IMG/VR virus record: IMGVR_UViG_2974586258_000001
Location: 1 to 64,000 of that record
DNA: 64,000 nucleotides
Direction: 5' to 3' (one strand)
From: a virus
Lineage: Duplodnaviria; Caudoviricetes
The notes beneath the pieces were generated by a model. It was not told where the DNA came from, ran no database searches, and worked only from the letters and a program-made list of their open reading frames with translations. A program made the position numbers and the translations under genes. Below are positions 2,174 to 55,537 of this stretch, piece after piece; within the stretch, counting starts at the first letter, position 1, and the number at the start of each line of letters is the position of its first letter.

Positions 2174-2180
2174 CGATATA

Positions 2181-2215
2181 GGGGCGACCTCAAAAGAGGG
2201 TTGCCTTTTCTTTTG
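2181..2215 (+). terminator. intrinsic terminator
   Basis: GGCGACCTC-AAAA-GAGGGTTGCC hairpin followed by a T-run. Confidence 0.7.
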
Positions 2216-2795
2216 CTTGAAATATACCCCACCCCGCCATATGAGATTGTTTGTATAGCCCCTGTACTAGACTTCCTACCTTAGAAAATATCCTCATGAT
2301 AGATAGTCATAATGTTGCAGATATATCGCCAAAGGGTTAATCAACCCAAATGCGACCTATTATCATTATCGCTATGATTCTCAAATATCAGGCACATATT
2401 TCACGTGCTACAAGTGTGTCAAATGTTAATAAAAATAATTCTCATTAAACTTTAGATTCAATATCGCAATAAACTATTATTTAATAATTAAACTACAATT
2501 TAAACTATATTTATTTTTAAAATTATATTGACTTATCAAGGAAGTTATGACTCACATTTAGACTTCGTTGAGTGTTCCAATTGAAACTAAAACATAAAGA
2601 CAAATGATAATAATTATCAATACTATTTAGATTCAAATGAACCGAATTACCTTCGGCATTTTAGGATTACCTTATTTAACATAACTAATACTAATATTCA
2701 TATTGGTTACGCCTACCGAACGGGATTCTGAGCTAGAAAACAATGGTTGACAAGATGATAAAATTAAGCTAGAGGATAGACCAGCCCTGACTTCA

Positions 2796-2812
2796 TGCAA
2801 CTTTCATGCCAA
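2796..2812 (-). promoter_or_regulatory. sigma54 (-24/-12) site
   Basis: Minus strand TTGGCATGAAAGTTGCA; GG-N10-GC spacing; 1 mismatch to TGGCACG-N4-TTGCW. Confidence 0.6.
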
Positions 2813-2971
2813 GTTATATTAGCTGAGGATAATGTGAGAGATAACGATATAGACTAAAGATTACAGAAGCCTAGTTGCCTTTGAGGTTGTCCCGAATCGC
2901 CTTGTGCTAAATGATAATCATTGACGTTTAGATTCTCAATTCGTCTGACTATCAATTGAGGGCTGTGCCCT

Positions 2972-2988
2972 CTGGCACCTTTGGTGCT
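2972..2988 (+). promoter_or_regulatory. sigma54-like site
   Basis: CTGGCACCTTTGGTGCT; GG-N10-GC spacing. Confidence 0.45.
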
Positions 2989-3254
2989 ATTAATCAAATA
3001 AGAATGATTATCGTTTGTATTATGACTTTCATTGCTGTTTGAGATGCAAGAATGCAAGCATAAAAGAAAAATTAATACAATGATTGTTTGTTGTTGTACA
3101 TAGAAGAGGCTATTGTCTAACAATATTAACAATATTGCCATCCAACACCTCTTCTGAAAGTGCAATATTACTATTAAAAGAGCAATGAGTTAGCATTAGT
3201 GTCATAAGACACCGAGACCATAGAGGTCTCAATTGGCCTCATATTTCATAAAAT

Positions 3255-3468
3255 GAAATAATATTATATAACCAAGATTGCAAAGCAATTTTGTTTATAT
3301 AATTGAGGCTGCAAATAAACTTATACAAGATGAAGTCTTTAAGAGCCGAAAATATATAAACAAAGCAATTTTATGATAATTATTCTCTGAATAATTTGAA
3401 TATTAAAAATTGACTTGGTTATATAATATTATTTCGGCTTCGCCGTTCCGCCTCGCCGAAATAATATT
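3255..3468. repeat. nested inverted repeats
   Basis: 22-bp perfect inverted repeat 3255-3276/3414-3435; 14-bp stem hairpin 3425-3468. Confidence 0.85.
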
Positions 3469-3837
3469 TAAATGTAGGCTCGACGTTAGGATTAATGTTA
3501 AAAGAGAATTATTTTTATTTAGTTTATTATCTGTCTTTCTATTTATATTTTCTTTATATTTCAATAACTTATTAAATTTGTCAATTTTATTTGATTAATC
3601 TTGTATGTCTAGTTTTATTATGGGTTCTATTTGCTCTTGTATTAAATCGGGCTGTTAGGTAAGTAGTTGTATTGATATACTCTGAGAAATTGATTATGGT
3701 TGTTTCTGGATAGATTATATTTAATGTTTGCAGGCGCTCAATTGTTCACTTTTATATTATTGATAATAATTCTTATTCAATATTATATTATAAGCAAAAG
3801 AAAAGGCACCTTCCGGTGCCCTTATAACTTAAATTAT

Positions 3838-4032
3838 TTACATTTTATTACATGTGTAATCAATGAAAGCAAAACCACGCTCTATCCATCCTGCCGTTAC
3901 CATGTCGTCAATAAACAAAGGGCCATTAGTATTGCATTGTTCATATGTACTGAATTGAGAGGTAATAGGCGACTCGCATACCATGTCACCAGTGTTGTTA
4001 AGTGTGCACGCTATAATAATAAGTTCAAACAT
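3838..4032 (-). CDS. small early protein (paralog of 5168-5359)
   Basis: MFELIIIACTLNNTGDMVCE; GAGG RBS; own promoter. Confidence 0.7.
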   Translation of the reverse strand: MFELIIIACTLNNTGDMVCESPITSQFSTYEQCNTNGPLFIDDMVTAGWIERGFAFIDYTCNKM

Positions 4033-4083
4033 TTCTGTCTACCTCTGCGTTTCGGTCAGGCCCTTGCCTCACCTTCTGAAATA

Positions 4084-4112
4084 AGTATAACAAAGGACTT
4101 ACCAAACCGCAA
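4084..4112 (-). promoter_or_regulatory. sigma70 early promoter
   Basis: TTGCGG-N17-TATACT with an A/T-rich UP region. Confidence 0.7.
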
Positions 4113-4141
4113 GCCCTCAAAACAAAATAAATCCGATATTT

Positions 4142-4157
4142 TGTGATGTGTGTCACA
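4142..4157. promoter_or_regulatory. CRP-binding site
   Basis: Perfect TGTGA-N6-TCACA followed by TTT. Confidence 0.6.
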
Positions 4158-4159
4158 TT

Positions 4160-4414
4160 TTATACTTCACCAGCACCTAATATAATTTTCTGTCCCGATG
4201 TATCAACTACAGCACAACACCAATATATTTTATTTTCGTCTGATATTGTCATCATGTGTAATTGCACAGGTTTATTGTTGAGGTGGCTTGATGTTTCTTC
4301 TGATAATTCTATAAGTGTTGAATCATCAGCAATTAATGATTTGTTACCAAACTTTTTGAGATATTTTAAATCAAGTTTAACTAAGTCGTAATAACTCATC
4401 TCTTCAACTTTCAT
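4160..4414 (-). CDS. hypothetical early protein
   Basis: 84 aa; start overlaps upstream stop (ATGA). Confidence 0.7.
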   Translation of the reverse strand: MKVEEMSYYDLVKLDLKYLKKFGNKSLIADDSTLIELSEETSSHLNNKPVQLHMMTISDENKIYWCCAVVDTSGQKIILGAGEV

Positions 4415-4680
4415 GTTTTATTCACCTCGTCTATATCATATTGACTCAATTCATCATCATAAGCCATTGCATGGACTCTCACAGAAGATACTAGATAATT
4501 AATCTCCGAGAGTTCATTTTGTTCCAATCCCTCTTTGTCTATTGAGACAATAATGGCACGTCCTAGACATTTAGATTTAAATTTGTCTGTTTTTGAATTG
4601 TTCAATTGTTGTTCGGCTATAATTGCGTGTTGTTCGTCAATACAGATCAGTTTATAGTAAATGTTTTCCATGATGTTCAA
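4411..4680 (-). CDS. hypothetical early protein
   Basis: 89 aa; GAGGA RBS. Confidence 0.7.
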   Translation of the reverse strand: MNIMENIYYKLICIDEQHAIIAEQQLNNSKTDKFKSKCLGRAIIVSIDKEGLEQNELSEINYLVSSVRVHAMAYDDELSQYDIDEVNKT

Positions 4681-5167
4681 TCCTCTAGTGCCTTATCTAA
4701 ACAATACTCGCAAGCATTACAACTGAAGCAATAACGGCACCCACAACCTACCTCTCCACAATCGCAACAATCATATAATTCAAAACAAGTTAAACCTGTT
4801 CCATCTTTGTTTATACACCTTGATAACTTTTTAATTTCCATAATATTTAATCCTTAACTATAATATTAAATTTATCAAGTTTAATCAGTGCTTTGCGATA
4901 ATCTTTATCCGTGCAATTTTCAGACAGATAACCGATCAATTTAATATAATTTGAATATTTCATTGTTGGTTTAGTATATGTTGATTTTCTGTTAATCATC
5001 GTTAATCCCTCAAATCCCTAGAATTCTACGGTTAATCTTTAATTCCCGTTTAAGTCTAGCACAACGGGCAACCATTGCAAATCGATCCGGTGTTGTTAAT
5101 GTCGAACCTGATGCGCTTTTAGGGGCTGCCAGTGATTTTAGTTTGAAATTAGTCATTTGTCCAGTCC

Positions 5168-5359
5168 TTAATAATCATCCAGAATGATACATTTCAAAGA
5201 CTCCAGTTCTAAAAGGTTAGGAATCTCCTTTTCCAATTGAGTATAGCAAACAGATTCACGAAATGCAATATCAAGAATATGATCTTCGCACTCAACATCG
5301 CCTGAATTATTAATGATGCAAGCTGTCAGTACAAGTCCGAAAATTTGAGCCGTTACCAT
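5168..5359 (-). CDS. small early protein (paralog of 3838-4032)
   Basis: MVTAQIFGLVLTACIINNSGDVECE; ATG at 5359 with AAGGA RBS. Confidence 0.65.
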   Translation of the reverse strand: MVTAQIFGLVLTACIINNSGDVECEDHILDIAFRESVCYTQLEKEIPNLLELESLKCIILDDY

Positions 5360-5608
5360 AGTATTTAATCCTTTTATGTTTCTGTATTTATTACCTTTAT
5401 CAACTATTGTCAAATCAAAAACTATTAATTTTGATTTGTTTAATGTTTTCCTCATGCAGCTTGGCGGATTCCTTCATCACTTTATTGTTATGTTGAATAC
5501 CTTTGATGGTTGCAACAAACATCAAGCCGAGTACACATCCAAAAAGCATTGCTGTCATCATTTTCTTAATCTCCTTTGGTTTGGCCCCTTGCCTTACCTG
5601 ATGAAATA

Positions 5609-5637
5609 ATTATAAACAAAAGGGCTGCATGATGCAA
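5609..5637 (-). promoter_or_regulatory. sigma70 early promoter overlapping a terminator hairpin
   Basis: TTGCAT-N17-TATAAT; overlapping hairpin AAAAGGGCTGCAT-G-ATGCAACCCTTTT. Confidence 0.75.
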
Positions 5638-5661
5638 CCCTTTTAGTTAAATTATTTTAAT

Positions 5662-6099
5662 TTATTTTGATGTTTTCAGCTTCTTAAGCAACTTTGTCAG
5701 ATAGTAAGCATTAATTTCTGCCATCTCAGATTGATTTGGGGATGAAAAAATATCCCTTGCATATTCTAACGCTCCGATCTCTTCTTTTGTAATCTCAAAA
5801 CCCAACATTGCTGTTTGATGTGCCTTTTTTACTTCTTCGGTAATCTCTTCATCTTTGAAACTCCAAATACTTTTTAAGTAAATATATGCATCTGACATAA
5901 TATCTTTAATTGAGTGATACGGTTCACCAACAGACCAAACATGGTTCGATAATGTGCTGTCAATTTGAACAAACCGATAAAACTTACCATATTTTGCGAT
6001 ATACATACTTTTAAAGTCTAGACCATTACTTTCAAAAGTTGCAACCAGTTTAATATTCTCAAATCCAGCATCTTTCAAAATTTTGATTTCGTTTTTCAT
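5662..6099 (-). CDS. hypothetical early protein
   Basis: 145 aa; begins MKNEIK. Confidence 0.8.
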   Translation of the reverse strand: MKNEIKILKDAGFENIKLVATFESNGLDFKSMYIAKYGKFYRFVQIDSTLSNHVWSVGEPYHSIKDIMSDAYIYLKSIWSFKDEEITEEVKKAHQTAMLGFEITKEEIGALEYARDIFSSPNQSEMAEINAYYLTKLLKKLKTSK

Positions 6100-6157
6100 G
6101 GTGTTTTACCTTTTGTTTAGTATGTTGGTTAAAAGTTTTCCTCTACAAGATGCGCTT

Positions 6158-6186
6158 ATAATAAGCGCATCAAATCAGAAGATCAA
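6158..6186 (-). promoter_or_regulatory. sigma70 promoter with GATC in the -35 box
   Basis: TTGATC-N17-TATTAT; -10 lies inside the perfect palindrome 6149-6171. Confidence 0.55.
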
Positions 6187-6193
6187 CAACTAT

Positions 6194-6376
6194 TTACTTA
6201 ATATCTACGAAAAATGAATCTTCTGGTTTTCCTAACATAAAATAAAGATCTCCTGTATCTTCCTTGACTTTCAAAAAATAAGCCAATTCTTGGTATTGTT
6301 CCGGTTTGTTGTTAGTCCATGCCGAAAATACATCTTCCCTGTACAGAATAACCACTTCATTATTTATTGCTTTCAT
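6194..6376 (-). CDS. hypothetical early protein
   Basis: 60-aa ORF in the co-directional cluster. Confidence 0.6.
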   Translation of the reverse strand: MKAINNEVVILYREDVFSAWTNNKPEQYQELAYFLKVKEDTGDLYFMLGKPEDSFFVDIK

Positions 6377-6570
6377 TCTTCATCATTCCAAAGATCTCGC
6401 TTGTTGTTCCGTTGAGTCTTGTTCAATTTCCGGCCTTTGCTTGTCCGTTCTGCTGACTCTTCAAAATTGAAACGGGCTTTCTTCTGAATTTTGGTTACAT
6501 TGCTATTGGTAAAAGACATATAATTTATTTCCTTTTATATTTAAATTTATTTGAATGTTTGAAATTTAGT

Positions 6571-6909
6571 TTAACAAGTTACGTTGTTTTCATCTCTGAA
6601 GGCTTGAACCCAGCCTCTCAGCTTTTCGACTTCTTTTGTATTATAGCGGATCAAGATGCAATGTCCAGAACTAATGACAGTATTTTCTACTTGATCAATC
6701 TCAGTTTCAAGCTGGATCCCGCTGTCAAAAACCTGTCCGGTTTGATTATGCTTGTATGCAATATAACAATAACGTTCATTATTTGAATTCATAATTTGAT
6801 AAACCTTTTTGAGTAGCCAGATTGTAAACAGAAAACCTGCGGCAATGGGGGCGATCATTATCAGTAGTAAAATTATTATAATCGCCCAGTCTAAGGAATC
6901 ATGTTCCAT
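6571..6909 (-). CDS. membrane-anchored hypothetical protein
   Basis: N-terminal hydrophobic helix. Confidence 0.65.
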   Translation of the reverse strand: MEHDSLDWAIIIILLLIMIAPIAAGFLFTIWLLKKVYQIMNSNNERYCYIAYKHNQTGQVFDSGIQLETEIDQVENTVISSGHCILIRYNTKEVEKLRGWVQAFRDENNVTC

Positions 6910-6921
6910 TGTATGACTCTC

Positions 6922-7374
6922 TTAGTTAACACAAAAGACAGTGTATTCTCCCGCTTCTGTCTCACTGAAATCATAGCCGCTAAAGTGATGACCTGCCCCA
7001 TCATGTGAAATAATACCATTAGCAAAAGCTGTCAACATCTCATCATTGTTTGCAATAATGATCCCCAGTGCTTCATATGCATCAGCCTTTTGAATTTTTC
7101 GGATTGCATCAACTGGGATCCCTGTCACGTCAGACATAAACCAATCAGAACCACAGCCAAGAACATATGTATCACTCGCCAACTCATCTTTCATGATATC
7201 AAGAATATCATCATTACTGATAATACGATATTCACGGCCATCAAAATCTACATAAAAATCATTGTCAAAATTATCAGCAACATCTGCGATCAATTGTTTA
7301 ACATCAGAGTAAATATGATCACCGGAGTTGTGGGACAGGATAGCATTAACAATGGCTTTGATTTCGTTTTTCAT
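6922..7374 (-). CDS. acidic early protein
   Basis: 150 aa; Asp/Glu-rich; DGAGHHFSGYD motif. Confidence 0.8.
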   Translation of the reverse strand: MKNEIKAIVNAILSHNSGDHIYSDVKQLIADVADNFDNDFYVDFDGREYRIISNDDILDIMKDELASDTYVLGCGSDWFMSDVTGIPVDAIRKIQKADAYEALGIIIANNDEMLTAFANGIISHDGAGHHFSGYDFSETEAGEYTVFCVN

Positions 7375-7503
7375 GGTGTTTTACCTTTTTAGGTTGAATT
7401 AAGAATACTTTCTTTTCTAACTTTCTGGGTCTAATTATACAGTGATTTTCTTTCTTTGCAAGGTTTTATTTTTTTGTTTGTCCCTCTTTAATGTCCAATT
7501 AAC

Positions 7504-7713
7504 TTACTTAAGTTTAACACTGATAGTCTCACTGTCAACAGAAACAAAAGAATAATTTTGCAAGATATCATTAAACTTTTGTTTGGCTTGCTCAAAATTT
7601 TCCGCAATTACTTCTCGATTAATAAACGCACCTGGATTGGTTTTAGTTTGAACAAATGCGGAACAGTTATAAGCTTGTTTGATCGCCATGATTGACCCCT
7701 TGGTTATGTGCAA
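7504..7713 (-). CDS. hypothetical early protein
   Basis: ORF downstream of a TTGCAT-N17-CATAGT promoter. Confidence 0.6.
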   Translation of the reverse strand: MHITKGSIMAIKQAYNCSAFVQTKTNPGAFINREVIAENFEQAKQKFNDILQNYSFVSVDSETISVKLK

Positions 7714-7804
7714 TTGTGTGTCTGTCTATGACTATGACGCAAAAACAAACTTAATGCAAGATCTTTTTTCTAAAAATATTTTGATTTATTTTATGTAAGG
7801 ATGC

Positions 7805-7833
7805 TTGCTTTATCTTTTGTCGTGCTTTATAAT
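7805..7833 (+). promoter_or_regulatory. sigma70 promoter oriented against the gene cluster
   Basis: TTGCTT-N17-TATAAT with an upstream A/T tract. Confidence 0.7.
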
Positions 7834-7998
7834 ATCATTACAAACTAGAAAACGGACTACCATCGTCTTTAAATATGGCTAAGATACTTGCAAAAGATCG
7901 AAGGTTGATCGCCGGTAGCACGTCTAGAACAAATTTAATATCAAATGAAAATAACGCCAGCTTGTTAGGCTGGCAATTGTTTGAGCATTAATTATCTG

Positions 7999-8469
7999 TT
8001 ATGTCATAATAAAATGATCTCCCATTCTTAAGTGATATTTTGCCTTTTCAATTGCCTGCTTTTGTGCCTCTTTAAAGTTACCATTAACAACAAAATCCGA
8101 TCCAGTTTCACCTAGGATACCACAATTAATCTGCACTTTCCACGATGTTCGGTTGTCCTTATCACAATAGATCGAAATATTGTGGTTATCATAATGTGAG
8201 CCCTCATCGAAACCTTGCACATAGTATCGAATGATTTTCTTTTGTTCATCTTTGATCCATTTCAAATCAGGTGAACAAAAATATTCCATAGCCTCAATTG
8301 AATGTAACATAAAATTGTCGGTTTCGTCTTGTTCTGACTCAATTTTGTCGTGTACCTTTTTAATTTTCTGGTCTATACGATATTGTAACTCGATGTAAAA
8401 ATCATAATTTTCGTAACTAATCTCTTTCATCATTTCATCGAATGACATATTAGAATAAAAATTGATCAT
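7999..8469 (-). CDS. hypothetical early protein
   Basis: 156-aa ORF with AAGGA RBS. Confidence 0.75.
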   Translation of the reverse strand: MINFYSNMSFDEMMKEISYENYDFYIELQYRIDQKIKKVHDKIESEQDETDNFMLHSIEAMEYFCSPDLKWIKDEQKKIIRYYVQGFDEGSHYDNHNISIYCDKDNRTSWKVQINCGILGETGSDFVVNGNFKEAQKQAIEKAKYHLRMGDHFIMT

Positions 8470-8471
8470 TT

Positions 8472-8651
8472 TTAGATTTCCTTGATAAAGATGCAGGATA
8501 AAACAGAATGAATTGTTTTATTTGTTTCAAGATATTGATTGATCCCTTTCTTGGCGCTTTCATAATCTTTGGCTCGATACTCTTTTGTCATAGTTCTAAA
8601 TTGTCCAGTAAAATCGTCAATGAAATCAATAACAAAGATAAAAGTTTTCAT
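8472..8651 (-). CDS. hypothetical early protein (59 aa, below the ORF-track cutoff)
   Basis: MKTFIFVIDFIDDFTGQF...; ATGA overlap with the upstream gene. Confidence 0.65.
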   Translation of the reverse strand: MKTFIFVIDFIDDFTGQFRTMTKEYRAKDYESAKKGINQYLETNKTIHSVLSCIFIKEI

Positions 8652-8842
8652 TTTATAAACTCCATTAACTCACTATAAAAGGCCGATTCAGTTTTAACAG
8701 TATAAACAGCACCATCACAAAACGCAAGATCTTTTATCTTTTGCTTATGTTCGGGTTTCAACTCCCTAAAGGCTTGCCAGATTGTCCCACCTTGCCAGCC
8801 GTGAACCTTAAGCAACAATTCCAGAACTGTGAGAGATTGCAT
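8648..8842 (-). CDS. hypothetical early protein
   Basis: 64 aa; GWQGGTI motif. Confidence 0.7.
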   Translation of the reverse strand: MQSLTVLELLLKVHGWQGGTIWQAFRELKPEHKQKIKDLAFCDGAVYTVKTESAFYSELMEFIK

Positions 8843-8853
8843 AGCAATAAACC

Positions 8854-9213
8854 TTACTTTGGGAAATTATCTTTTATAAATTTTAAAACTTCCTTAATTG
8901 CGCCTTTTCCCTCTTTATCTCGCTGGCGATCATACCACGACGGGCAAACATCATGCAACCTAGATCTGAGTGTATCCAGATGAATCGACCAGACCACTTT
9001 AAAACCGTCTATGTCGTATGACTTGCCAGTGACGGATATCCATGTCCGTCTGCCGTTTGGTAGATCGCTTACATACAGGTTAACAGGTTGATTTTGATCG
9101 ATTGCAACCAATAGTCCGTCAAAATTAGCCAAAACCTTGTAATCTTTTAAGCTGGATGCATATTCCTGACGCTGTGCAAAAGTAGCGTTATTCATATCCA
9201 TGTTAGAACTCAT
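8854..9213 (-). CDS. hypothetical early protein
   Basis: 119-aa ORF. Confidence 0.7.
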   Translation of the reverse strand: MSSNMDMNNATFAQRQEYASSLKDYKVLANFDGLLVAIDQNQPVNLYVSDLPNGRRTWISVTGKSYDIDGFKVVWSIHLDTLRSRLHDVCPSWYDRQRDKEGKGAIKEVLKFIKDNFPK

Positions 9214-9394
9214 ATTCGATCACCCCGTGTTCGTTAATGATTTGTGCTTTATAATAGCCGCCTTTTGATGCAATCGCATAGGCTTGCGCCATTGTAAGAT
9301 TGTCGCGGACATCCGGCAAGCTGTTTTCATATTCCATTAAAATCAATGTGAACATCTCAGTCAATCCTCTTTCGTTAACCTCGTTTCGTTTCAA
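9203..9394 (-). CDS. hypothetical early protein (true start may be the ATG near 9355)
   Basis: First gene after the leftward promoter; GAGGA RBS before an internal ATG. Confidence 0.6.
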   Translation of the reverse strand: MKRNEVNERGLTEMFTLILMEYENSLPDVRDNLTMAQAYAIASKGGYYKAQIINEHGVIEYEF

Positions 9395-9401
9395 TGGTGC
9401 A

Positions 9402-9516
9402 ACTATAGCAAGGGCAGATCAGAAGATCAAGACGCAAGACAACAAAAAGATGATAAATTTTTCTGAAAAGAAATCACACAAAGATGTTGATCTTGGTTGT
9501 CTGCTTTTGCTAGTAT
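9402..9516. promoter_or_regulatory. divergent sigma70 promoter pair, both with TTGATC -35
   Basis: Minus: TTGATC(9430-9425)-N17-TATAGT; plus: TTGATC(9487-9492)-N18-TAGTAT. Confidence 0.6.
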
Positions 9517-9581
9517 TTACCTCGACGGCAAACAATACCGGATTGTAGAAAAATCCAAACAAAATTTGAGAGATTAAACAA

Positions 9582-9776
9582 ATGAAACAAGATAAAGCAT
9601 TCTATCAAAACCTCCCCAAAGTTAATGGGTTCAAGTGGTCATATTTTGATAACGGGTTGCACTCTTTCACAAAGAAAACGGACAAAGGTTATCTAGAATG
9701 CAAGATGACAGAACAAGATATTCAAGATCCTGATCAGTTTGAATTTATGTTATCTCGTGGCCTTAGCCGAAAATAA
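9582..9776 (+). CDS. hypothetical early protein
   Basis: 64 aa; downstream of the plus-strand promoter. Confidence 0.7.
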   Translation: MKQDKAFYQNLPKVNGFKWSYFDNGLHSFTKKTDKGYLECKMTEQDIQDPDQFEFMLSRGLSRK

Positions 9777-9868
9777 TTTAAATTTTTCTTTGTCTGGGGC
9801 TTACAATACAAAATCAGGGATTTTGCTACCGAAAGAGAAAATTATTTAAATAATTTTCTCTTTTTCTA

Positions 9869-9897
9869 TTGCACTATGTGAGCCCTTGGTTTATACT
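9869..9897 (+). promoter_or_regulatory. sigma70 promoter with no downstream ORF
   Basis: TTGCAC-N17-TATACT. Confidence 0.7.
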
Positions 9898-10007
9898 GTA
9901 TTCAAGAGGTGAGGGAAAGCAGAGAGAGAGAGAGAAACGAGCGGAGCCTGTGAGCCGCAGCCGAGAGGCTAAAGGGTAGGGTGGTGGAACCTGCCTGACG
10001 TTCGCCA

Positions 10008-10054
10008 AACGAGAATGATTATCATTCAAATCGTAAATGAGAATGATTCTTATT
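10008..10054. promoter_or_regulatory. tandem Fur-box-like sites
   Basis: AACGAGAATGATTATCATT and AATGAGAATGATTCTTATT, each 1 mismatch to AATGANAATNATTNTCATT. Confidence 0.7.
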
Positions 10055-10332
10055 CGCTCCAAATTTCGCATTTGGATTCTGAATATCATTTTCCTATTGT
10101 ATATAAATTTTTTCGGTTATGGATTGGAAAATCCGTTTTATGGTCGAGATCTCATTTTTGAAAATTAATCTGAAAAATGAAACAGTCCTTTGTTTCTCAT
10201 TTTTCAATCTTGAAACTCGAAATGTGATCGAGACCTCAAAATTTTAGATGCTAATAATAAAAATGAATATGGTCTCAGGGTCTCATTTTTAAATTACAAT
10301 CAATAATTTTAAATGTTCCTCAATGTCTCAGA

Positions 10333-11034
10333 TTATTTAGATTTAATAATTTCAACAACGTTTGGGTAGATCCTTAAGTCAATTGTATCCATCTCATATT
10401 TTAAATCTAGTGCATGTTCTAATTTTCGAGACAACCAAGCATTGTACGCATTAATTTCATTATCGAAATAACCAAGATGTTCCCTCTTTTTAGTTCTTGG
10501 ATTACTACAACGAGATATGAATTTTTCTCTATTGTTATTCCAATTGACACCAATTTTATATATCCCTCTTCTTGATTTAACATCCATTGTGAAATTATTT
10601 AACCATGTAGGCACAAAAACACAAGTTTCTGGTGAATATATTTTGTTATCTTGTGATAACAAATCTTTATCTATTGCATAACCATCAATGTGGTTTTCAA
10701 TAAACCATTTTCTAAAATTACTAAACATTAACCACTCTTCGCAAACAGAAACTTCTCGATATGTTGGATAGACTTCACGTTGGTTTTTATCATAAACTCT
10801 CGCCAAGATACCAGTCCATACGGAATATATAGGACATTTGAGTTGTTTCTTATTGAAACAAGGGTGTGTTCTGTAATCTGCATCGTTTATTCCATAATTA
10901 AATAGGGATTTTCGTTGTGCATTAGTATAATTATTTACAGGATAATTTTCTCTCAGATATTCAGAAAATTCCGATGCTTTCGACATTTTAATCTCTTTCT
11001 CCACTTTAAACCTCTTGGTTGTTATCATAATCAA
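10333..11034 (-). CDS. HNH-family homing endonuclease with AP2-like C-terminus
   Basis: YSVWTGILARVY...VCEEWLMFSNFRKWF...IDKDLL..NKIYSPETCVFVP; C-terminal HLGYF. Confidence 0.8.
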   Translation of the reverse strand: MIMITTKRFKVEKEIKMSKASEFSEYLRENYPVNNYTNAQRKSLFNYGINDADYRTHPCFNKKQLKCPIYSVWTGILARVYDKNQREVYPTYREVSVCEEWLMFSNFRKWFIENHIDGYAIDKDLLSQDNKIYSPETCVFVPTWLNNFTMDVKSRRGIYKIGVNWNNNREKFISRCSNPRTKKREHLGYFDNEINAYNAWLSRKLEHALDLKYEMDTIDLRIYPNVVEIIKSK

Positions 11035-11370
11035 TTTTATATTTTTTCAAAACTTCTTCACAAAATATTAATAATGGTTCCACAAATACATCAGCTTTAA
11101 TCTCCTCATCACAAACTATTAACTTATTAACCCATGACAAATCAATTTCAACAATATCGTATGGTTTTTGTTGCATAAAATTTTCCTCTTTAAAATTATC
11201 AGATTACAAATAATATTATAACATATCGTATGGTTTTTAATAAATAATACTTTGTTATAATAAATGTTTTCTATTTTACTTTCAGTTATATCAATGTATT
11301 ATCGAGACTCCAAACGTTAAGCATGAATTTATTCCCTGGGTCTCAAAAATTGATAGTTGTTAAAACCTCA

Positions 11371-11463
11371 TAGGAAGCTATCTGATGCATTACATGCCAT
11401 TCAGGCTACAATGGTATTCCTTTAATCTAGGAATTGATTTAAAGCACTGTACAGTGCGTTATA
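11371..11463 (-). repeat. dispersed ~90-bp imperfect palindromic repeat, copy A
   Basis: Reverse complement shares TATAACGC, AATCAATTCCTAG, ATACCATTGTA and AGCTTCCT with copies B-D. Confidence 0.6.
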
Positions 11464-11562
11464 TGCAATACCTAGGACAGACAAATGGACAAGGTAAACA
11501 ATAAATAAAGAAAAGCCAAGGATTATCCTTGGCAAGGGGTAATTTTATAATCTGTTATTCCC

Positions 11563-13560: not shown

Positions 13561-14826
13561 TCAATACTTTATATCGATCTTGCAATTAACTTTAGAACCT
13601 AGTCTATCTTCGAATGCCCATTCCATAACTTCAATTAGTTCTTGCCTATCTTCACGTTTGACAATAAAGCTGTCGTGAACACACAGGATACATTTGTTTT
13701 GTTGAACGAAATAATTGATTACTTTTGCTGCAATACTACTGTCAACACATTGTAATCTTAGACCTACAATGGCATTAGATTGGAACTTCTCAAGCAGATA
13801 CGGGTTATTATCAATAATAGCATATAGAATTTCCATTGGGTCTATAATAATTTTAGGAATCTGTTTATTCTTGTACAATTGTTTTGTATTTAGATTTTTA
13901 CTGATCCACTGGCTAAGTGCCATCACATAGCTCGCATCATTACGACAATTCAGTCTGATAAGCATAGCCATTTTTGCAAGTTTACGTAACAACTTCTTAT
14001 CATAACCTACAATTTCAATATTATAAGGATCAAAATCATCATCAAAATCGTACTTTTGTTCTGTTGCCAAGATACTTGGATGAAGTGCTGTATAATCACA
14101 CTCTGTTACGGGAGAACCATCAATTGTGATCTTTGCTCGTTCTTCTGATGGCAGAGATTGAACAACACCTTGTGCATTGTAGAACCGCCCTCCTTCATCA
14201 AAAGAATTATTGAAAATACGCATTGTATTAACAAACAAACGTTGTCCGTTTTGATCACGAATATCAAATTGTTCACTTAACTCATTATACAATTTCAACT
14301 CCTTAATCATTGCTCTTGTTTCTTCAACAGACTTAAACTGTTTGGGTTTACGGTTCTTATCACGAAGTTCTAATACACTCTCAAGGAGAGGTTTGTTAGT
14401 ATCTTGCAATAATACGTATAAGTTTTCAAAAATCTCTTCTGATAATGTTAATACAGATTGTTCAAAACAAGCATCTCCGTTGTCATCATAGTGACTGAAA
14501 CCACCTTTGTCAAGGATACAACCACATTTCTGCATAACATCCAAAAACAACCTAAAGGATTTATAATCTATTGGACTTGCCTTACTCTTTTGTCCATTGA
14601 TGATTGGTTTATTATAGAACATATTACGGTCTAAGGTGATATAAATATTGTCGATACCATTAGTGATTGTACGAGATAGATTGTAAACCATACAATTAAT
14701 TATTTGTTTAATTTGTTTTGTTTTATTGTCTGATAGCGTAACGATATTGTATTTATTGAATATAGAAAATAGCCAGTCTGATGCTGGCTTGTATTCTTTG
14801 TTTATAGTTTTAGCTAATAAGTACAT
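13561..14826 (-). CDS. minimal family-A/T7-RNAP-superfamily polymerase-like protein
   Basis: GGRFY...QSLP...TECDYTALHP (motif A), RKLAKMAML (motif B-like), LQCVDS and LCVHDSFIV (motif C). Confidence 0.65.
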   Translation of the reverse strand: MYLLAKTINKEYKPASDWLFSIFNKYNIVTLSDNKTKQIKQIINCMVYNLSRTITNGIDNIYITLDRNMFYNKPIINGQKSKASPIDYKSFRLFLDVMQKCGCILDKGGFSHYDDNGDACFEQSVLTLSEEIFENLYVLLQDTNKPLLESVLELRDKNRKPKQFKSVEETRAMIKELKLYNELSEQFDIRDQNGQRLFVNTMRIFNNSFDEGGRFYNAQGVVQSLPSEERAKITIDGSPVTECDYTALHPSILATEQKYDFDDDFDPYNIEIVGYDKKLLRKLAKMAMLIRLNCRNDASYVMALSQWISKNLNTKQLYKNKQIPKIIIDPMEILYAIIDNNPYLLEKFQSNAIVGLRLQCVDSSIAAKVINYFVQQNKCILCVHDSFIVKREDRQELIEVMEWAFEDRLGSKVNCKIDIKY

Positions 14827-15365
14827 TTATTATTAATCCTTTATTATTATAATATAAAAAAAAGTATATAAGAGAGGTCAACTTCATTTTAATACTCCTA
14901 AAGTGCCTTCAGCCCTTGCCAGCTCTGGCTTAGAGGCACCTAAAGTGGCAAGACAGGGGTGTAATTTACATATTCAATTACTCATCTTTTTCCATACCAT
15001 TTTCATACTTCTCTAGCATTTCTTTACAGAACATTACAAGTGGTTCAACAAATACACTTGCTGTTACTGTGTCATCTTCAGTATCAAAATAGATATCATT
15101 AACCCAACTCAAATCCACTTTGACTTTATCATATGGTTCCATAGTGCTCTCCTATTTTGTTGGTGTAGATTATATATTAACATTTAAACCCGTGTTTTCA
15201 AAATAACGTTTAGTTCTATGTTATAACTTTTAGTTATAAATAACAACAATAACCCCCTATCATAGACCAAATTGTATTTAAAATTTGATATAAACATAAA
15301 ATAACAAGATAATAAAACATGGACACAAAGAAAGCCTCTTCCAGTTTATGGTTGAGGCTTTTATT

Positions 15366-15613
15366 TTATTTGTTTTTCATACTCTCAACAAACATTCCCC
15401 CGAAGGTTGTAAGTTTCTTCTTAGTTCCTTTCTTTCCATCGATTAGAAATCCACCTGTTGTCATAATACAATAAGCAGTACTTCCAGACCAATAACCATT
15501 AACTTGGTCTGTTAACTTCTTTAGTAGTTGTTTCTTTGCAAGTTCAACATCCTTGCTTTGTGGGCCACACCAACAACTATTGAATAGTTTGAAAATTACT
15601 TCGTCAAAAACAT
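15366..15613 (-). pseudogene. frameshifted small gene
   Basis: ATG with RBS at 15613 is out of frame, across a T5 run, with an ~80-codon open frame (DEVIFKLF...) ending at TAA 15366. Confidence 0.5.
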
Positions 15614-15782
15614 TATTGGTCCTTCTTCAATCTCCTCTACAATACAATCATAATAACTGTCATCGTTGTTAACTTCACCTTCTACTTCTCCTGCAATATC
15701 TCTTGCTTCTGAAGAAGATTCTGCATCAACGTACACTGTTTCTGTATATTGGAAAAACTTTTGTTACTTTGTATTTTGCCAT
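15596..15782 (-). pseudogene. frameshifted small gene
   Basis: MAKYKVTKV / FQYTETVYVDAESSSEARDIA joins if one T is removed from a T5 run near 15755. Confidence 0.55.
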
Positions 15783-22846: not shown

Positions 22847-23887
22847 TCAATATACGCTTTTATATTCGCAAATGTCAAGTAATTTATTCAAGATAAACAA
22901 AGATTCATTTTCAAAGCATTCTGTGCTCCAATCTACACAATGTTGGAAATTGCGTTCACGAAGTTCAGTGTGTAACTCTTGTTCATAATCGTAAATCTCT
23001 TGATGTGTGGCTGTAAACATTCTTAGTTTATGAATCTTCTTTATTTTAGATAAAGATCTTAAATTTCTAATTCTTTCATCAACATTAAAAGACCTGCCAA
23101 CTTTAATGAACTTATTGTCAAAACTCAAGATATATAGATAATCAATTTCATCTTTTCTTTCAGGGTAATATCCGTTACCATTGCCTAATTCTTTTTGTCT
23201 ATCTTTCCTACAACCACTACATTGTATTTTGCCATTTATAAAACTTTGGTAACTGATCTCTTGTTTTCCATGTATTTTGCAAACAAACTCTAGACGAGAT
23301 GAAAAGTTTTTATATTCGGAAGCAAAACCTATAAATTCATAATTAGATTCTACGCAAATTTTAATGCAACTTTCTATAACTTCATTAATAGGTTTTCTCT
23401 TTTGCTCTGCTTTTATGTTGTTTGCACAAACAGGGCATCCACACTTTCCGTTAATAGTGTTGTGTATTGACGCAACCCACTTATGTCCATCTTTTAAACA
23501 TTCAAGATTTAATTTTGTCTTTTGATCTTTATATTTTTCGGCAAAACCATGAACAACAAACCTATCCTCCCCTGCCCGACGAGCAAGAATTAGGTATTGC
23601 CAAGACTTCCATTTAGGATTAAGCGCACAACCGCAAGGTTTGTTACCGGCCTTTAAATTCCCTTTTGTACAAATAAAGTAACCATCAGGAAATAACTCAG
23701 TATCTGGAGAGCAAACATCACAAGTTACTCTGAAAACAGTAGATCTTCCTATCTTTCCATGTACCGCAATAACTTTTAATTTTCCATTATTAAAGGTTTG
23801 CCCAATAAAGTCCTCATGTTTATCATTTTTCTTTTTAGATCTTGTTACACTATCAATTACTTCTTTGCTCATTAGCCCTCTTAACAA
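22847..23887 (-). CDS. Hef-like/GIY-YIG homing endonuclease with Zn-finger repeats
   Basis: CDVCSPDTELFPDGYF...KPCGC...CPVC...YLYIL...IKVGRSF. Confidence 0.75.
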   Translation of the reverse strand: MLRGLMSKEVIDSVTRSKKKNDKHEDFIGQTFNNGKLKVIAVHGKIGRSTVFRVTCDVCSPDTELFPDGYFICTKGNLKAGNKPCGCALNPKWKSWQYLILARRAGEDRFVVHGFAEKYKDQKTKLNLECLKDGHKWVASIHNTINGKCGCPVCANNIKAEQKRKPINEVIESCIKICVESNYEFIGFASEYKNFSSRLEFVCKIHGKQEISYQSFINGKIQCSGCRKDRQKELGNGNGYYPERKDEIDYLYILSFDNKFIKVGRSFNVDERIRNLRSLSKIKKIHKLRMFTATHQEIYDYEQELHTELRERNFQHCVDWSTECFENESLFILNKLLDICEYKSVY

Positions 23888-53386: not shown

Positions 53387-55537
53387 TTAGTCTGACATCA
53401 AGTTAATCAGCGTATTACCGAAATTAGAAGTCCCTGCATCTACTTCAACTTTAACAGCATCAGCAAACTTAGTGCCATCAGGAACAACTTTTACATTAAT
53501 AGTTTGTGGTGACTGATTCATCAAAGGAGAAGGCCCTGACATTGGTGCAAGTACAGAAGGAACCCTGATACCTGAGACAGAAGATTGCAAACTTGGTCGC
53601 ATATCTGTTCGCATAGTTGGGGCACCAAATATGCTATCAACAACACTCTTTTGCCAAGGGACAAAATAATCTTGGACAAAATTATGGAACAAGTAGAATG
53701 AGCCAGCTCCCATAGCAACAGGTGTTGCCCCAAATCTTGCTGCTCCTGCTGTGGCAGCTCCAGCTCCCCCTGTTGCAGCCGCTGCTGCACCACCTACGGC
53801 GGTTGCTGCTGGAAGCAACTTAGGAATCATTTTAAGAGCTTTGACGATTGACCACAAAAACCCTGAAAGTTTAGCAAAAGCACTAGCTGCAATTAAAACA
53901 CCTGCTGCTTGCGCTACCCAACTACCTTCAATTTCTTTTAGTGCAGGAATTAATTGTGTCAGAGGATCAAGAATATATTTATTAAGATAATGGTATGTCA
54001 ACAATGAAACATCGTGAACTGTTCCACCAAAATACATAAAACCATCAACTAACCCACCAAGAGCAATACCGATTGCTCTAGCTGCACCTTCATTGTTTTT
54101 AAGTGCAAAAGCTAGACTGTTAAATGTGCGAGTCAAAGCCTCACCAAAGCCTGACATGAAGATTACGTTTTGGAAATTAGTCCATGTTTGTTGTAAGCGG
54201 CGCATAGCAACACCATTACTATTGAGCATTTTTTCAAGTGCTCCGCCTTTCTTGGCTGCATCAGACATCATCTTCCCCATCAAAGGTAAGATATCCTCTG
54301 CGAGTAACTGTCCTTTTTCCATCATTTTAAAAAATTCAGGGGTTGTCAACTCTTTTCCTGAAAATTCCGATGCAGCTTTTCTAAAAAGATCTAATGCTCC
54401 GGGGAGCTGCTCGCCGATTTGATTTTTTACTTCTTCGCTCATCAATTGCCCTTTGTTGGCAATTTGTGTAAAACCAAGAAGTGCTTTTTCAAATCTAAAC
54501 TGGTCAAGCCCGAGAGCTGTGGAGTATTCACTAAGACCAGTAAACAATTCTTGGGTTTGTCCACTTGACATGATTTCTTTAGATGCTACGCTCATCTGAA
54601 CGAAACCTTGAGCTGCTGTCTTCAAATCAAGGCCCAATCTATAGGCTTCATCTCTGATAAATTGAATCTTAGAAGCTGTCTCAGAGGTGCTATCAGATGT
54701 CATAGACATTGCAGCATTAATACCTTCAAACATCTGACCTGTGCGCATAACTGCGGCACCACCAGTAAATGCAAGGTTGGCTGCCGTCAAAGCAATAAAG
54801 GCTGAACGGACTTCACGCAATGTTCCAAGGAAATCTCTGCCACCCGCACTAGCTCGCTTGAAATCACGTTCTAATGCTGCTACACTCTGTCTATATACTT
54901 GTAAGCTAATTGCACCAGATTTTAATTGAGCATTTAATGATGCTACCTGTTGACCCATTGCTGCATTTCCAGCACCTCCAAACATACTTGTACGTCTGAT
55001 ATTTCCCGCACTGATTGTTTCTTGGGCTCTTGCAGATCTATTGGCTTCATTTCGTTGATTTCGTATTGCTTCTCTACGAGCAATCAGCATATCACGAGAA
55101 GGCATAGGGCCCATGAATTGCCCTGCAATCTTATTCTTAAATTGTTCTTGTCGTTTTGCTTCAGATTCTTGCCTGCGAGCATCAATCTCTCTTAATTTTC
55201 TAAGGGTATCATTATGCTTTTTTGTTGCTGTTTCTGTTTGTCTTGCAATTCGTGCTTGTTCTTGGACAGCTTTCTTTGCTTCCCGTTGCTGCATTTTAGT
55301 ATTGGTTCCGGGGGAGAATGGCATAGGGCCAACAAATTGACTCCGGCTGCCACCACCTCCCCTGCCAGATGTTCCTGCAATCCTACGTCCGGCAGACATA
55401 GCAGAACTCATCTTTCCCTGCACCTTTGCCCATTCCGAGCCAACTTTTCGTATAGCCATTAATGCACGTTTATACGAGGTGTTGTCAACTTTGAAGGTTA
55501 CAATATTTGTGATTTTGCTCACATTTATTTCTGTCAC
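53387..55537 (-). CDS. tape measure protein
   Basis: Ala/Gly-rich helical protein; KGQLMSEEVKNQIGEQLPGA tape-measure motif. Confidence 0.9.
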   Translation of the reverse strand: MTEINVSKITNIVTFKVDNTSYKRALMAIRKVGSEWAKVQGKMSSAMSAGRRIAGTSGRGGGGSRSQFVGPMPFSPGTNTKMQQREAKKAVQEQARIARQTETATKKHNDTLRKLREIDARRQESEAKRQEQFKNKIAGQFMGPMPSRDMLIARREAIRNQRNEANRSARAQETISAGNIRRTSMFGGAGNAAMGQQVASLNAQLKSGAISLQVYRQSVAALERDFKRASAGGRDFLGTLREVRSAFIALTAANLAFTGGAAVMRTGQMFEGINAAMSMTSDSTSETASKIQFIRDEAYRLGLDLKTAAQGFVQMSVASKEIMSSGQTQELFTGLSEYSTALGLDQFRFEKALLGFTQIANKGQLMSEEVKNQIGEQLPGALDLFRKAASEFSGKELTTPEFFKMMEKGQLLAEDILPLMGKMMSDAAKKGGALEKMLNSNGVAMRRLQQTWTNFQNVIFMSGFGEALTRTFNSLAFALKNNEGAARAIGIALGGLVDGFMYFGGTVHDVSLLTYHYLNKYILDPLTQLIPALKEIEGSWVAQAAGVLIAASAFAKLSGFLWSIVKALKMIPKLLPAATAVGGAAAAATGGAGAATAGAARFGATPVAMGAGSFYLFHNFVQDYFVPWQKSVVDSIFGAPTMRTDMRPSLQSSVSGIRVPSVLAPMSGPSPLMNQSPQTINVKVVPDGTKFADAVKVEVDAGTSNFGNTLINLMSD

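Follow-up and report, generated by a model that had tools for sequence, protein, structure and literature searches.

Why would a bacteriophage keep clusters of binding sites for a host iron sensor in DNA that carries no genes? This question is raised by a 64,000-nucleotide stretch of viral DNA (hereafter the window), which comprises the first 64 kb of the single-contig IMG/VR record IMGVR_UViG_2974586258_000001 (122,963 bp, 35% G+C). Two blocks, at positions 2174-3830 (block 1) and 9780-10330 (block 2), bracket a cluster of small early genes near the start of this record. An earlier note, made from the sequence alone, had described both blocks as gene-free and as laden with sites for the host regulators Fur, sigma54 (RpoN), and CRP, and had proposed that they recruit abundant host DNA-binding proteins. 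We find that this observation stands firmly where Fur is concerned and that the case for the other factors is weak. As sequence features, the Fur-like sites are genuine, enriched, and conserved, and the blocks together carry approximately ten predicted Fur operators. As to what these operators might do, we tentatively favor a reading in which non-coding RNAs are transcribed from the genome ends and from the boundary of the early region under the control of host iron status.

On the evidence of its matches, the source virus is a lytic Aeromonas myophage whose closest named relatives belong to the genus Plateaulakevirus. Its early region matches seven GenBank Aeromonas phages, with 35-52% of the region covered at 83-87% identity. 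Five of these are Plateaulakevirus phages or near-identical to one (phiA009 and its near-twin phiA019, phiA047, vB_AceP_PAc, and vB_AdhM_TS9), and the remaining two, PhAER-3 and PhAER-4, carry no genus name. A search for more distant DNA relatives returned the same seven phage records, and a search of IMG/VR for further relatives with a conserved 28-nt pattern and a 64-aa protein gave no match. The detailed comparison of the locus was made with the window and six relatives whose regions were fetched, the seventh relative record being that of phiA019. Counts over seven genomes refer to this set.

Fur-like sites were identified with the 19-bp consensus quoted in a paper on the Fur protein of Aeromonas hydrophila, with overlapping matches merged and dinucleotide-shuffled sequences used as controls. 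The claim that the blocks hold at least seven near-consensus Fur boxes is borne out. At a threshold of at least 14/19 matching positions, there are 8 merged sites in the blocks, and approximately 0.4 would be expected. Block 1 accounts for 5 of them (shuffle mean 0.36) and block 2 for 3 (shuffle mean 0.05), and in neither case did any of 500 shuffles reach the observed number. The scan against shuffled controls, which the earlier note had suggested as a check, thus places the density of Fur sites far above that of shuffles. When the threshold is set at 13/19, 8 sites are present in block 1 and 4 in block 2, again with 0/500 shuffles for either. At 15/19, block 2 has 2 sites (0/500 shuffles) and block 1 has 1, a count that 23 of 500 shuffles also reach.

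Across the whole genome, 27 raw matches are found at 14/19 or better, of which 9 lie in the blocks, and 24 sites remain after merging. The 23 other gaps of at least 150 nt that are free of open reading frames (ORFs) contain no Fur-like site, and the two richest 1,657-nt windows in the genome for such sites are the two blocks themselves. Permuting the letters of the 19-mer gave the same contrast, with 0 of 1,000 permuted motifs reaching 8 sites in the blocks. A count that presupposes no motif leads to the same sequence: among 2,128 different 11-mers in the blocks, the most overrepresented is AATGATAATCA (25 occurrences versus 2.1 expected), which is the center of the Fur consensus.

We also derived a matrix from phage sequences only, using 125 block sites from the window and the six relatives that were seeded with AATGATAATCA. 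The consensus of this matrix, TATAAATGATAATCATTAT, is present letter for letter in the fepB|entC spacer of Escherichia coli K-12. When the matrix was applied to the 50 kb that surround the enterobactin genes in E. coli K-12, its top four matches fell in the fepB|entC (two matches), fepA|fes, and fepD|entS spacers, one of the fepB|entC matches being 19/19. These three spacers, which we take to be classical Fur-controlled regions, total 726 bp. Richness in A and T alone does not explain this ranking because other spacers of the same region rank lower. In sequence, the phage boxes are indistinguishable from proven enterobacterial Fur operators.

No FUR-family protein is encoded by the phage, as judged by a search that was positive in 14 of 14 control genomes. 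Therefore, host Fur is the most economical candidate for the predicted binder. The available text of the A. hydrophila Fur paper quotes the same 19-bp consensus and, for three predicted sites that agree with it at 63-84%, reports a gel shift with two and none with the third.

Conservation in related phages, on which the earlier note had made its claim depend, was found for five boxes, at 2600, 2907, 2994, 10033, and 10075, which are retained in all seven genomes against an overall identity of only approximately 70-75% in the blocks. In block 1, box 1 (2352-2376, 14/19) lies 11-35 bp from the predicted left end of the genome and is kept in PAc, TS9, PhAER-3, and PhAER-4. It is followed by box 2 (2425-2449, 14/19) and by the three invariant boxes of this block. 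Box 3 (2600-2624) includes the perfect 7-1-7 box TGATAATAATTATCA, box 4 (2907-2925) has AATGATAATCATT, which is the exact 13-nt core of the consensus, and box 5 (2994-3018, 13/19) lies approximately 100 bp from the predicted right boundary of the repeat described below. Box 6 (3369-3393, 14/19) is in a stretch that is missing from most relatives, and box 7 (3756-3780, 13/19) is common to phiA047 and PhAER-4. Block 2 holds three boxes of 14-15/19 (10005-10029, 10033-10057, and 10075-10093). The last two are the invariant ones, and the first is an extra, duplicated box of the window; TS9 has a different extra box.

In the six relatives, the regions homologous to block 1 hold 16 sites in 9,980 nt (1.6 per kb) and those homologous to block 2 hold 10 in 3,310 nt (3.0 per kb), compared to 26 sites in 96,067 nt (0.27 per kb) for the rest of the fetched loci. 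The window shows a sharper contrast than this, since sites also occur in the small-ORF regions of the relatives.

The gene-free character of both blocks likewise holds up. The homologous gaps in the six relatives are 1.4-1.9 kb and 0.37-0.68 kb long and have no annotated coding sequence, and phiA019 has no annotated feature under its match to block 1. Furthermore, of the 25 window ORFs of at least 25 aa that lie in the blocks or next to them, not one persists as an uninterrupted, full-length frame in all six relatives. A hydrophobic frame of 43 aa (10037-10168) was rejected as a gene, since an alignment read by eye shows that it breaks after 8 codons in phiA009. A tRNA search of the blocks found none, and an Rfam scan of them gave 5 matches, all far under the gathering scores. 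The blocks align with their counterparts in the relatives at approximately 69-78% identity, with many insertions and deletions.

Block 1 sits where two gene arms converge, between the terminators of both. Plus-strand genes stop at 2173 and are closed by an intrinsic terminator at 2180-2208 (plus strand) that is conserved in the relatives, and minus-strand genes stop at 3838 and are closed by an intrinsic terminator at 3802-3823 (minus strand). The tail of the first terminator belongs to a 25-nt inverted repeat with 3784-3808. Block 2 is flanked by a conserved plus-strand ORF of 64 aa (9582-9776; phrog_37537, E 7e-17), which is annotated in the six relatives and has no assigned function, and by a minus-strand gene for an HNH endonuclease.

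The location of block 1 becomes clearer when the linear records of PhAER-3 and PhAER-4 are considered. Both records end inside their own block 1, at a position matching window position 2342, and they carry exact end repeats of 755 and 746 bp, respectively, with 100% identity. What is new here is that, by homology, these repeats map to approximately 2341-3118 of the window, and block 1 is therefore probably a genome end of the source phage. The predicted direct terminal repeat (2341-3118, approximately 778 bp) is present once in the genome, with no second copy, as expected if an assembler collapses a terminal repeat. The two ends of the record share a 143-bp overlap, so the assembly looks circular and its start point is arbitrary.

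Both predicted boundaries are marked by palindromes that are conserved in the source genome. The palindrome GGGTT-AATC-AACCC (2331-2350) contains the predicted left boundary, 2340|2341, in its loop, and the palindrome TTGTC|TAACAA (3111-3125) spans the predicted right boundary, 3118|3119, and is directly followed by two copies of TAACAATAT (whole element, 3111-3136). Inside the repeat, an AT-rich element at 2488-2534 is nearly invariant in the alignment with the relatives. After the repeat, block 1 continues with unique non-coding DNA that includes conserved palindromes. With the ends predicted in this way, both gene arms run outward to the termini and five Fur boxes lie inside the repeat. Block 2 is then 7.4-8.0 kb inside the predicted left end, or at 6.0-6.5% of a virion DNA of approximately 123.6 kb. 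The suggestion that the blocks might lie at a terminal repeat thus fits block 1 and not block 2.

Metagenome data offer weak hints in the same direction. The mapping used contigs only, which cannot show ends, from runs that each held at most 0.19 of the sampled words. In run X1, a 151-nt contig terminates at 3117, and in run X3, a contig that extends 28 letters past 3088 stops on the letters that end the PhAER-3 repeat. In run X4, the summed contig depth is approximately 6,200-6,800 over 2403-3004 versus approximately 1,400-2,900 over 3005-5400, and depth is high to the left of the repeat too.

We take the Aeromonas phage cluster 2L372D to be the same group as Plateaulakevirus. The available text of a 2019 paper describes this cluster as myoviruses whose packaging strategy was unknown. 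The mapping presented above leads us to propose short direct terminal repeats as the packaging type of these phages.

If the boxes are operators, one may ask which promoters they could control. Four boxes in the repeat are each followed, at a fixed distance, by TTTAGATTC(A/T)(A/C)A. Its minus-strand reading is a -35 hexamer (TTGAAT or TTGAGA), which places the spacer and the -10 element under the box. At box 3, the predicted leftward sigma70-like promoter (2607-2636, minus strand) consists of TTGAAT, 18 nt, and TATTAT, with spacer and -10 under the box. The arrangement TTGAAT or TTGAGT, 18 nt, TAnnnT was the best pick of our script in five of the seven genomes and was recognized by eye in the other two. 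At box 4, the predicted leftward promoter (2911-2939, minus strand) consists of TTGAGA, 17 nt, and TATCAT and matches 10/12 consensus positions. Its register is identical in all seven genomes, and the -10 element TATCAT is present in five. At box 2, a minus-strand TTGAAT-18-TATTTT arrangement is present in three of the seven genomes. The earlier note had stated that most sites are not placed over a promoter or ORF that they could regulate. This is correct in that no ORF lies downstream, and it is not correct for boxes 3 and 4, which lie on conserved sigma70-like promoter elements.

Downstream of the promoter at 2939, the alignment carries a folding signal that is stronger on the minus strand (column-shuffle z of -6.15) than on the plus strand (-2.50). 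A conserved stem at 2835-2904 (minus strand), a possible 5' part of a leftward non-coding transcript, has 14 pairs, 2 of them compensatory, and its G-U pairs are possible on the minus strand only.

Block 2 is organized differently, in the order promoter, purine-rich leader without a conserved ORF, Fur boxes, and then the TCTCATTTTT motif. The promoter (9870-9898, plus strand) is a conserved sigma70 sequence, TTGCAC-17-TATACT, recognized in an alignment read by eye. Its hexamers are kept while the spacer diverges, and two relatives have TATAAT as the -10 element. The consensus scan missed this promoter because its -35 hexamer matches only 3/6 positions. The leader (9905-10004, plus strand) has an (AG)7 run and small stems and is shorter in PhAER-3 and TS9. 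Beyond the boxes, three copies of TCTCATTTTT and a related GAGACCTCAAAATTTT occupy 10147-10295 (plus strand), and this motif is found nowhere else in the genome. Separately, the window has approximately 90 extra nt at 9769-9868 compared to the six relatives. This stretch, apparently a duplicate of the sequence that directly precedes the block 2 promoter, contains a perfect 22-nt palindrome at 9836-9857.

From these features, we infer that the source phage, a Plateaulakevirus-like Aeromonas myophage, has its genome ends in block 1, with a repeat of approximately 0.78 kb collapsed to one copy in the assembly, and that block 2 is a second control region with a conserved sigma70 promoter for a predicted non-coding, purine-rich transcript. 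In an iron-replete cell, host Fur-Fe2+ would occupy the phage operators. The bound protein would close the leftward sigma70-type promoters under boxes 3 and 4 inside the repeat and would obstruct the block 2 transcript, whose boxes lie approximately at +100 to +190 from its start. In this manner, the non-coding transcripts of the genome ends and of the early-region boundary would be made or withheld according to host iron status. Replication of the phage DNA could cause some titration of Fur as a by-product. The non-coding RNAs might prime replication, aid processing of the repeat, or regulate something else. We judge this iron-gated transcription to be quite possible, at somewhat less than an even chance.

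Several observations weigh against it. The matches to promoter consensus sequences are modest (8-10/12), and the region has 63 promoter-like matches versus 40.8 +/- 6.7 in shuffles. Inspection of the boxes at 2994, 3369, and 10075 revealed no convincing promoter, and the block 2 boxes are well downstream of their promoter rather than over it. None of the boxes has a gene downstream. A leftward transcript that starts in the left copy of the repeat would be a run-off transcript at the DNA end, and one that starts in the right copy would be antisense to the right-arm genes that it enters. Both the missing downstream gene and the unusual orientation of the promoters speak against simple regulation. 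Structural covariation is thin, involving 2 of 14 pairs in the stem at 2835-2904 and 0 of 22 in a stem at 3425-3468. Finally, the terminal repeat is predicted from homology and from two records with neighboring accession numbers.

Phages outside this genus carry Fur operators in their DNA as well, as indicated by Fur 19-mers in other viral contigs. A scan of IMG/VR for the perfect Fur 19-mer yielded 32 contigs, none of which is related to the source phage. Thirteen of them form one group (approximately 36% G+C) in which each member has the perfect 19-mer. In the single member that was read, which encodes a family-A polymerase and a small terminase, the perfect box (11113-11131 of that contig) lies in a spacer just after a terminator and approximately 200 nt before the next gene, an arrangement that looks like ordinary Fur control of a phage gene. 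A different layout is present in the unrelated phage contig L025, which encodes a large terminase, portal, protease, and tail protein. Upstream of its leftward head and packaging genes, a tandem array (L025:10757-11325) has 14 Fur-like sites in approximately 560 bp, including three perfect 19-mers. The array consists of an 89-nt unit repeated 4.3 times at 99% identity plus 45-nt variants, and the contig breaks inside it. The form of this array hints at a use beyond promoter control.

Such an array resembles a sponge more than a set of promoters, and the boxes of the source phage might serve the same end. Without any role for promoters, hundreds of replicated copies, with approximately 15 boxes per DNA copy if the repeat is counted twice, would soak up Fur-Fe2+ and derepress host iron uptake. 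The iron would feed the iron-dependent ribonucleotide reductases of the phage, which encodes NrdA, NrdB, and an NrdD-like reductase. The Fur titration assay (FURTA) relies on such an effect, in that a multicopy plasmid bearing one Fur box derepresses reporters under Fur control, and most boxes of the phage have no gene to control. However, the element TTTAGATTCAA beside boxes 3 and 4, a -35 sequence when read on the other strand, is conserved at a fixed distance. A sponge needs no such partner, which argues against a pure sponge. Moreover, ten boxes per genome are few, and derepression would be useless if host DNA were degraded or host transcription stopped early, and the phage carries several nucleases. 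We consider titration as the main role of the boxes to be rather unlikely. A different use of Fur, which we deem improbable, is suggested by analogy with phage T5: Fur bound beside the DNA ends and at the boundary 6.0-6.5% inside might pause DNA entry once the small-ORF region is in, shield the ends, or serve as an architectural cofactor in cutting and packaging of the repeat, in the way a host protein landing pad has been proposed for that phage. The closeness of box 1 to the predicted left end and the five boxes inside the repeat are consistent with this proposal, as is the place of block 2, at 6.0-6.5% of the DNA compared to 7.9% for the T5 injection-stop region. The genes between block 2 and the end are small and directed toward the end. 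According to the available text on T5, the injection-stop region is a repeat-rich stretch that is not translated and that is conserved across 25 T5-like phages, and its eight DnaA boxes are proposed to hold the entering DNA on membrane-bound DnaA. By contrast, the blocks of the source phage contain no DnaA box cluster, none of the 8 early ORFs that were scanned encodes an A1- or A2-like protein, and the repeat is 0.78 kb rather than approximately 10 kb in length. Boxes 6 and 7 are neither at an end nor at the boundary formed by block 2, and the T5 model is itself unproven. In addition, we know of no two-step entry among myoviruses.

The boxes might instead be operators of a dimeric protein encoded by the phage that recognizes ATGAT(A/T)ATCAT, their likeness to Fur boxes being a matter of convergence. 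The core is indeed a simple AT-rich palindrome, most early ORFs have no known function, and one good match is less surprising given that several host motifs had been screened when the sites were first noticed. However, the matrix derived from phage sites is indistinguishable from one of real Fur operators in that its top four matches in E. coli are such operators, and the sites vary in the loose hexamer-array way that is typical of Fur boxes and unlike a tight operator set. The phage also has no FUR-family gene. We assign this explanation a low probability. For block 2 alone, the Fur boxes could be secondary to a replication origin in which the G/A-rich transcript of a strong promoter stays paired with the DNA as an R-loop and the AT-rich TCTCATTTTT stretch melts downstream. 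The succession of a conserved promoter, a purine-rich leader, and an AT-rich stretch with a block-specific motif is consistent with this idea, and the transcription-primed origins of T4, T7, and ColE1 have a similar layout. Nevertheless, the leader varies in length between relatives and an origin in block 2 would leave the boxes of block 1 unexplained. We give this proposal little credence.

A more general possibility is that, in some lytic phages, the gene-free DNA of the genome ends carries arrays of host Fur operators that act as a functional device rather than in ordinary promoter control. They might form a sponge that draws Fur away from the host chromosome while the phage DNA multiplies. 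Alternatively, they might form a Fur-dependent checkpoint on DNA entry or end processing, which would be the landing-pad idea of T5 with Fur substituted for DnaA. The 14-box array of L025 would be a second, stronger instance. We regard this generalization as unlikely, albeit with a real chance of being true.

The sites for other host factors do not share the conservation of the Fur boxes. Two sigma54 sites had been claimed, and two sequences are present, at 2797 (minus strand) and 2973 (plus strand), each one mismatch from TGGCAC-N5-TTGC. These are weak matches of a kind that occurs 7 times in the genome, and neither is conserved at its place in the relatives. The site at 2797 sits in unconserved sequence. 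The one at 2973 belongs to a 42-nt insertion of the window (2950-2991, plus strand), which comprises a hairpin and the sigma54-like TGGCACCTTTGGTGC and is missing at this place in the six relatives. This element has the form of a GAGGGC-NNN-GCCCTC hairpin followed by TGGCA(C/T)CTTTG(G/A)TGCT, and a similar copy is present elsewhere in block 1 of PhAER-4 (approximately 1150-1200 of the fetched region, L006). It may be a small mobile or recombining element.

The perfect CRP core TGTGA-N6-TCACA reported at 4142 is present (4142-4157), and it is kept in only one of the six relatives, phiA047. It lies between two minus-strand ORFs, with a stop codon on one side and a terminator-like hairpin on the other, and not at a clear promoter. 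A second perfect CRP core is found inside the tape measure gene, at 55508. With sites that are either single or not conserved, recruitment of RpoN and CRP by the blocks finds no backing. For DnaA, one box with 1 mismatch was found in block 1 and none in block 2, and TTWTNCACA is in neither block.

The many palindromes that had been remarked upon are mostly a product of the AT-rich background: 34 are found in block 1 versus 23.7 +/- 5.1 in shuffles, and for inverted repeats with arms of at least 8 nt, 10 of 200 shuffles reach the observed 34. Some individual elements are conserved. A perfect 22-nt inverted repeat (3255-3276 and 3414-3435) encloses nested repeats, and its arms are nearly invariant and have a sequence that is unique in the genome. 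A terminator-like hairpin (3273-3300, plus strand) has an apical stem whose sequence differs among relatives while the pairing is kept, with two pairs changed on both sides in 3 sequences each. All seven genomes retain the long AT/GC palindromic stem at 3425-3468. The hexamer pair GAGACC / GGTCTC forms hairpin arms in both blocks (3216-3238, 10228-10236, and 10264-10280). Two other long ORF-free stretches, at 14827-15665 (839 nt) and 11101-11562 (462 nt), are without a Fur-like site.

The genes between the blocks form a cluster of small ORFs (3838-9562, minus strand) that would be transcribed toward the left end and that includes several internal sigma70-like promoters. The relatives have the same arrangement. 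Eight of these early ORFs were scanned, and no informative family was found. We also scanned 20 of the 37 ORFs of at least 280 aa in the genome. The products found include a tail sheath, a baseplate wedge protein, a tape measure protein, a portal, a family-A DNA polymerase, a primase-helicase, and a ligase in addition to the three reductases named above. No phage RNA polymerase was seen among the 37 ORFs, 20 of them scanned, and none is long enough for an enzyme of the T7 type, given the size that such a polymerase requires. Therefore, early transcription probably depends on the host enzyme.

Endonuclease-like paralogs that are 72-81% identical to each other are present at genome positions 22862-23734, 65959-66575, 70569-71113, 101195-101667, 107358-108353, and 111080-112087, and the ORFs adjoining the two blocks (1397-2173 and 10333-11034) are likewise endonuclease-like. 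The available text of one paper reports that homing endonuclease genes are abundant in this phage genus. Another pair of paralogs, both assigned to phrog_4756, consists of a 421-aa protein in the left arm (window 13561-14826) and a 464-aa protein beside the structural genes (genome 78678-80072).

Iron is a main currency of conflict between hosts and pathogens and between phages and hosts, and Fur is its master sensor. The phage examined here may read or disturb the iron signaling of its host. That approximately ten predicted Fur operators are kept at the DNA ends across a genus suggests that phage development is tuned to host iron status, that the host iron response is rewired by the phage, or that a host repressor serves as a structural part at the genome ends. 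These phages have been proposed for therapy in fish farming. Because iron levels differ greatly between water, gut, and blood, an iron-gated step, if true, could affect how such a therapy performs.

A comparison with known systems helps to place these blocks. The enterobactin promoter regions (fepB-entC, fepA-fes, and fepD-entS) have the same operator sequence, and they are the regions ranked first by the phage-derived matrix. A box over the spacer and the -10 element is the usual layout for repression, and boxes 3 and 4 cover these parts of a predicted sigma70-like promoter in the same way. However, the enterobactin promoters drive iron-uptake genes, whereas no gene follows the phage boxes. 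In this last respect, the blocks are more like FURTA, where many copies of a Fur box are carried on replicating DNA without a regulated gene. FURTA is a laboratory artefact that is used as an assay. Our survey of the literature, which covered mainly openly accessible text, found no natural Fur sponge in a phage and no Fur boxes in phage terminal repeats or serving as decoys.

Operators for host nutrient sensors are known from other phages, such as the pho boxes of cyanophages and the Fur control of stx1 in Shiga toxin prophages. Those boxes precede protein-coding genes, whereas the ones described here are clustered in gene-free DNA at the genome ends. The ends themselves are reminiscent of T7, which has an exact, short, non-coding terminal repeat, adjacent short repeats, and host-type promoters near the end. 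The predicted repeat of a few hundred bp, the short repeats beside its boundaries, and the host-type promoters near the end correspond to these features. The differences are that the source phage is a 123-kb myovirus in which no phage RNA polymerase was seen and that its repeat promoters point left.

The closest parallel to the arrangement as a whole is the injection-stop region of T5. The earlier note knew of no described phage system of this form, and yet the T5 region, as presented in the available text on that phage, embodies a described idea of the same form. In both cases, a large untranslated region rich in repeats and palindromes lies near one end of the genome, at the inner edge of a set of small early genes, and has conserved boxes that are proposed or predicted to bind an abundant DNA-binding protein of the host. 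The boxes are for DnaA in T5 and are Fur-like in the source phage, where DnaA boxes are absent. The T5 region is inside a terminal repeat of approximately 10 kb, whereas the repeat here is approximately 0.78 kb and block 2 is outside it. T5 has A1 and A2, of which no homologs were found among the 8 early ORFs scanned, a search of limited sensitivity. The T5 mechanism is itself a proposal. Having neither DnaA boxes nor a long repeat nor A1 and A2, the blocks do not belong to the T5 family. Nevertheless, they may function along similar lines, Fur taking the part that is proposed for DnaA in T5.

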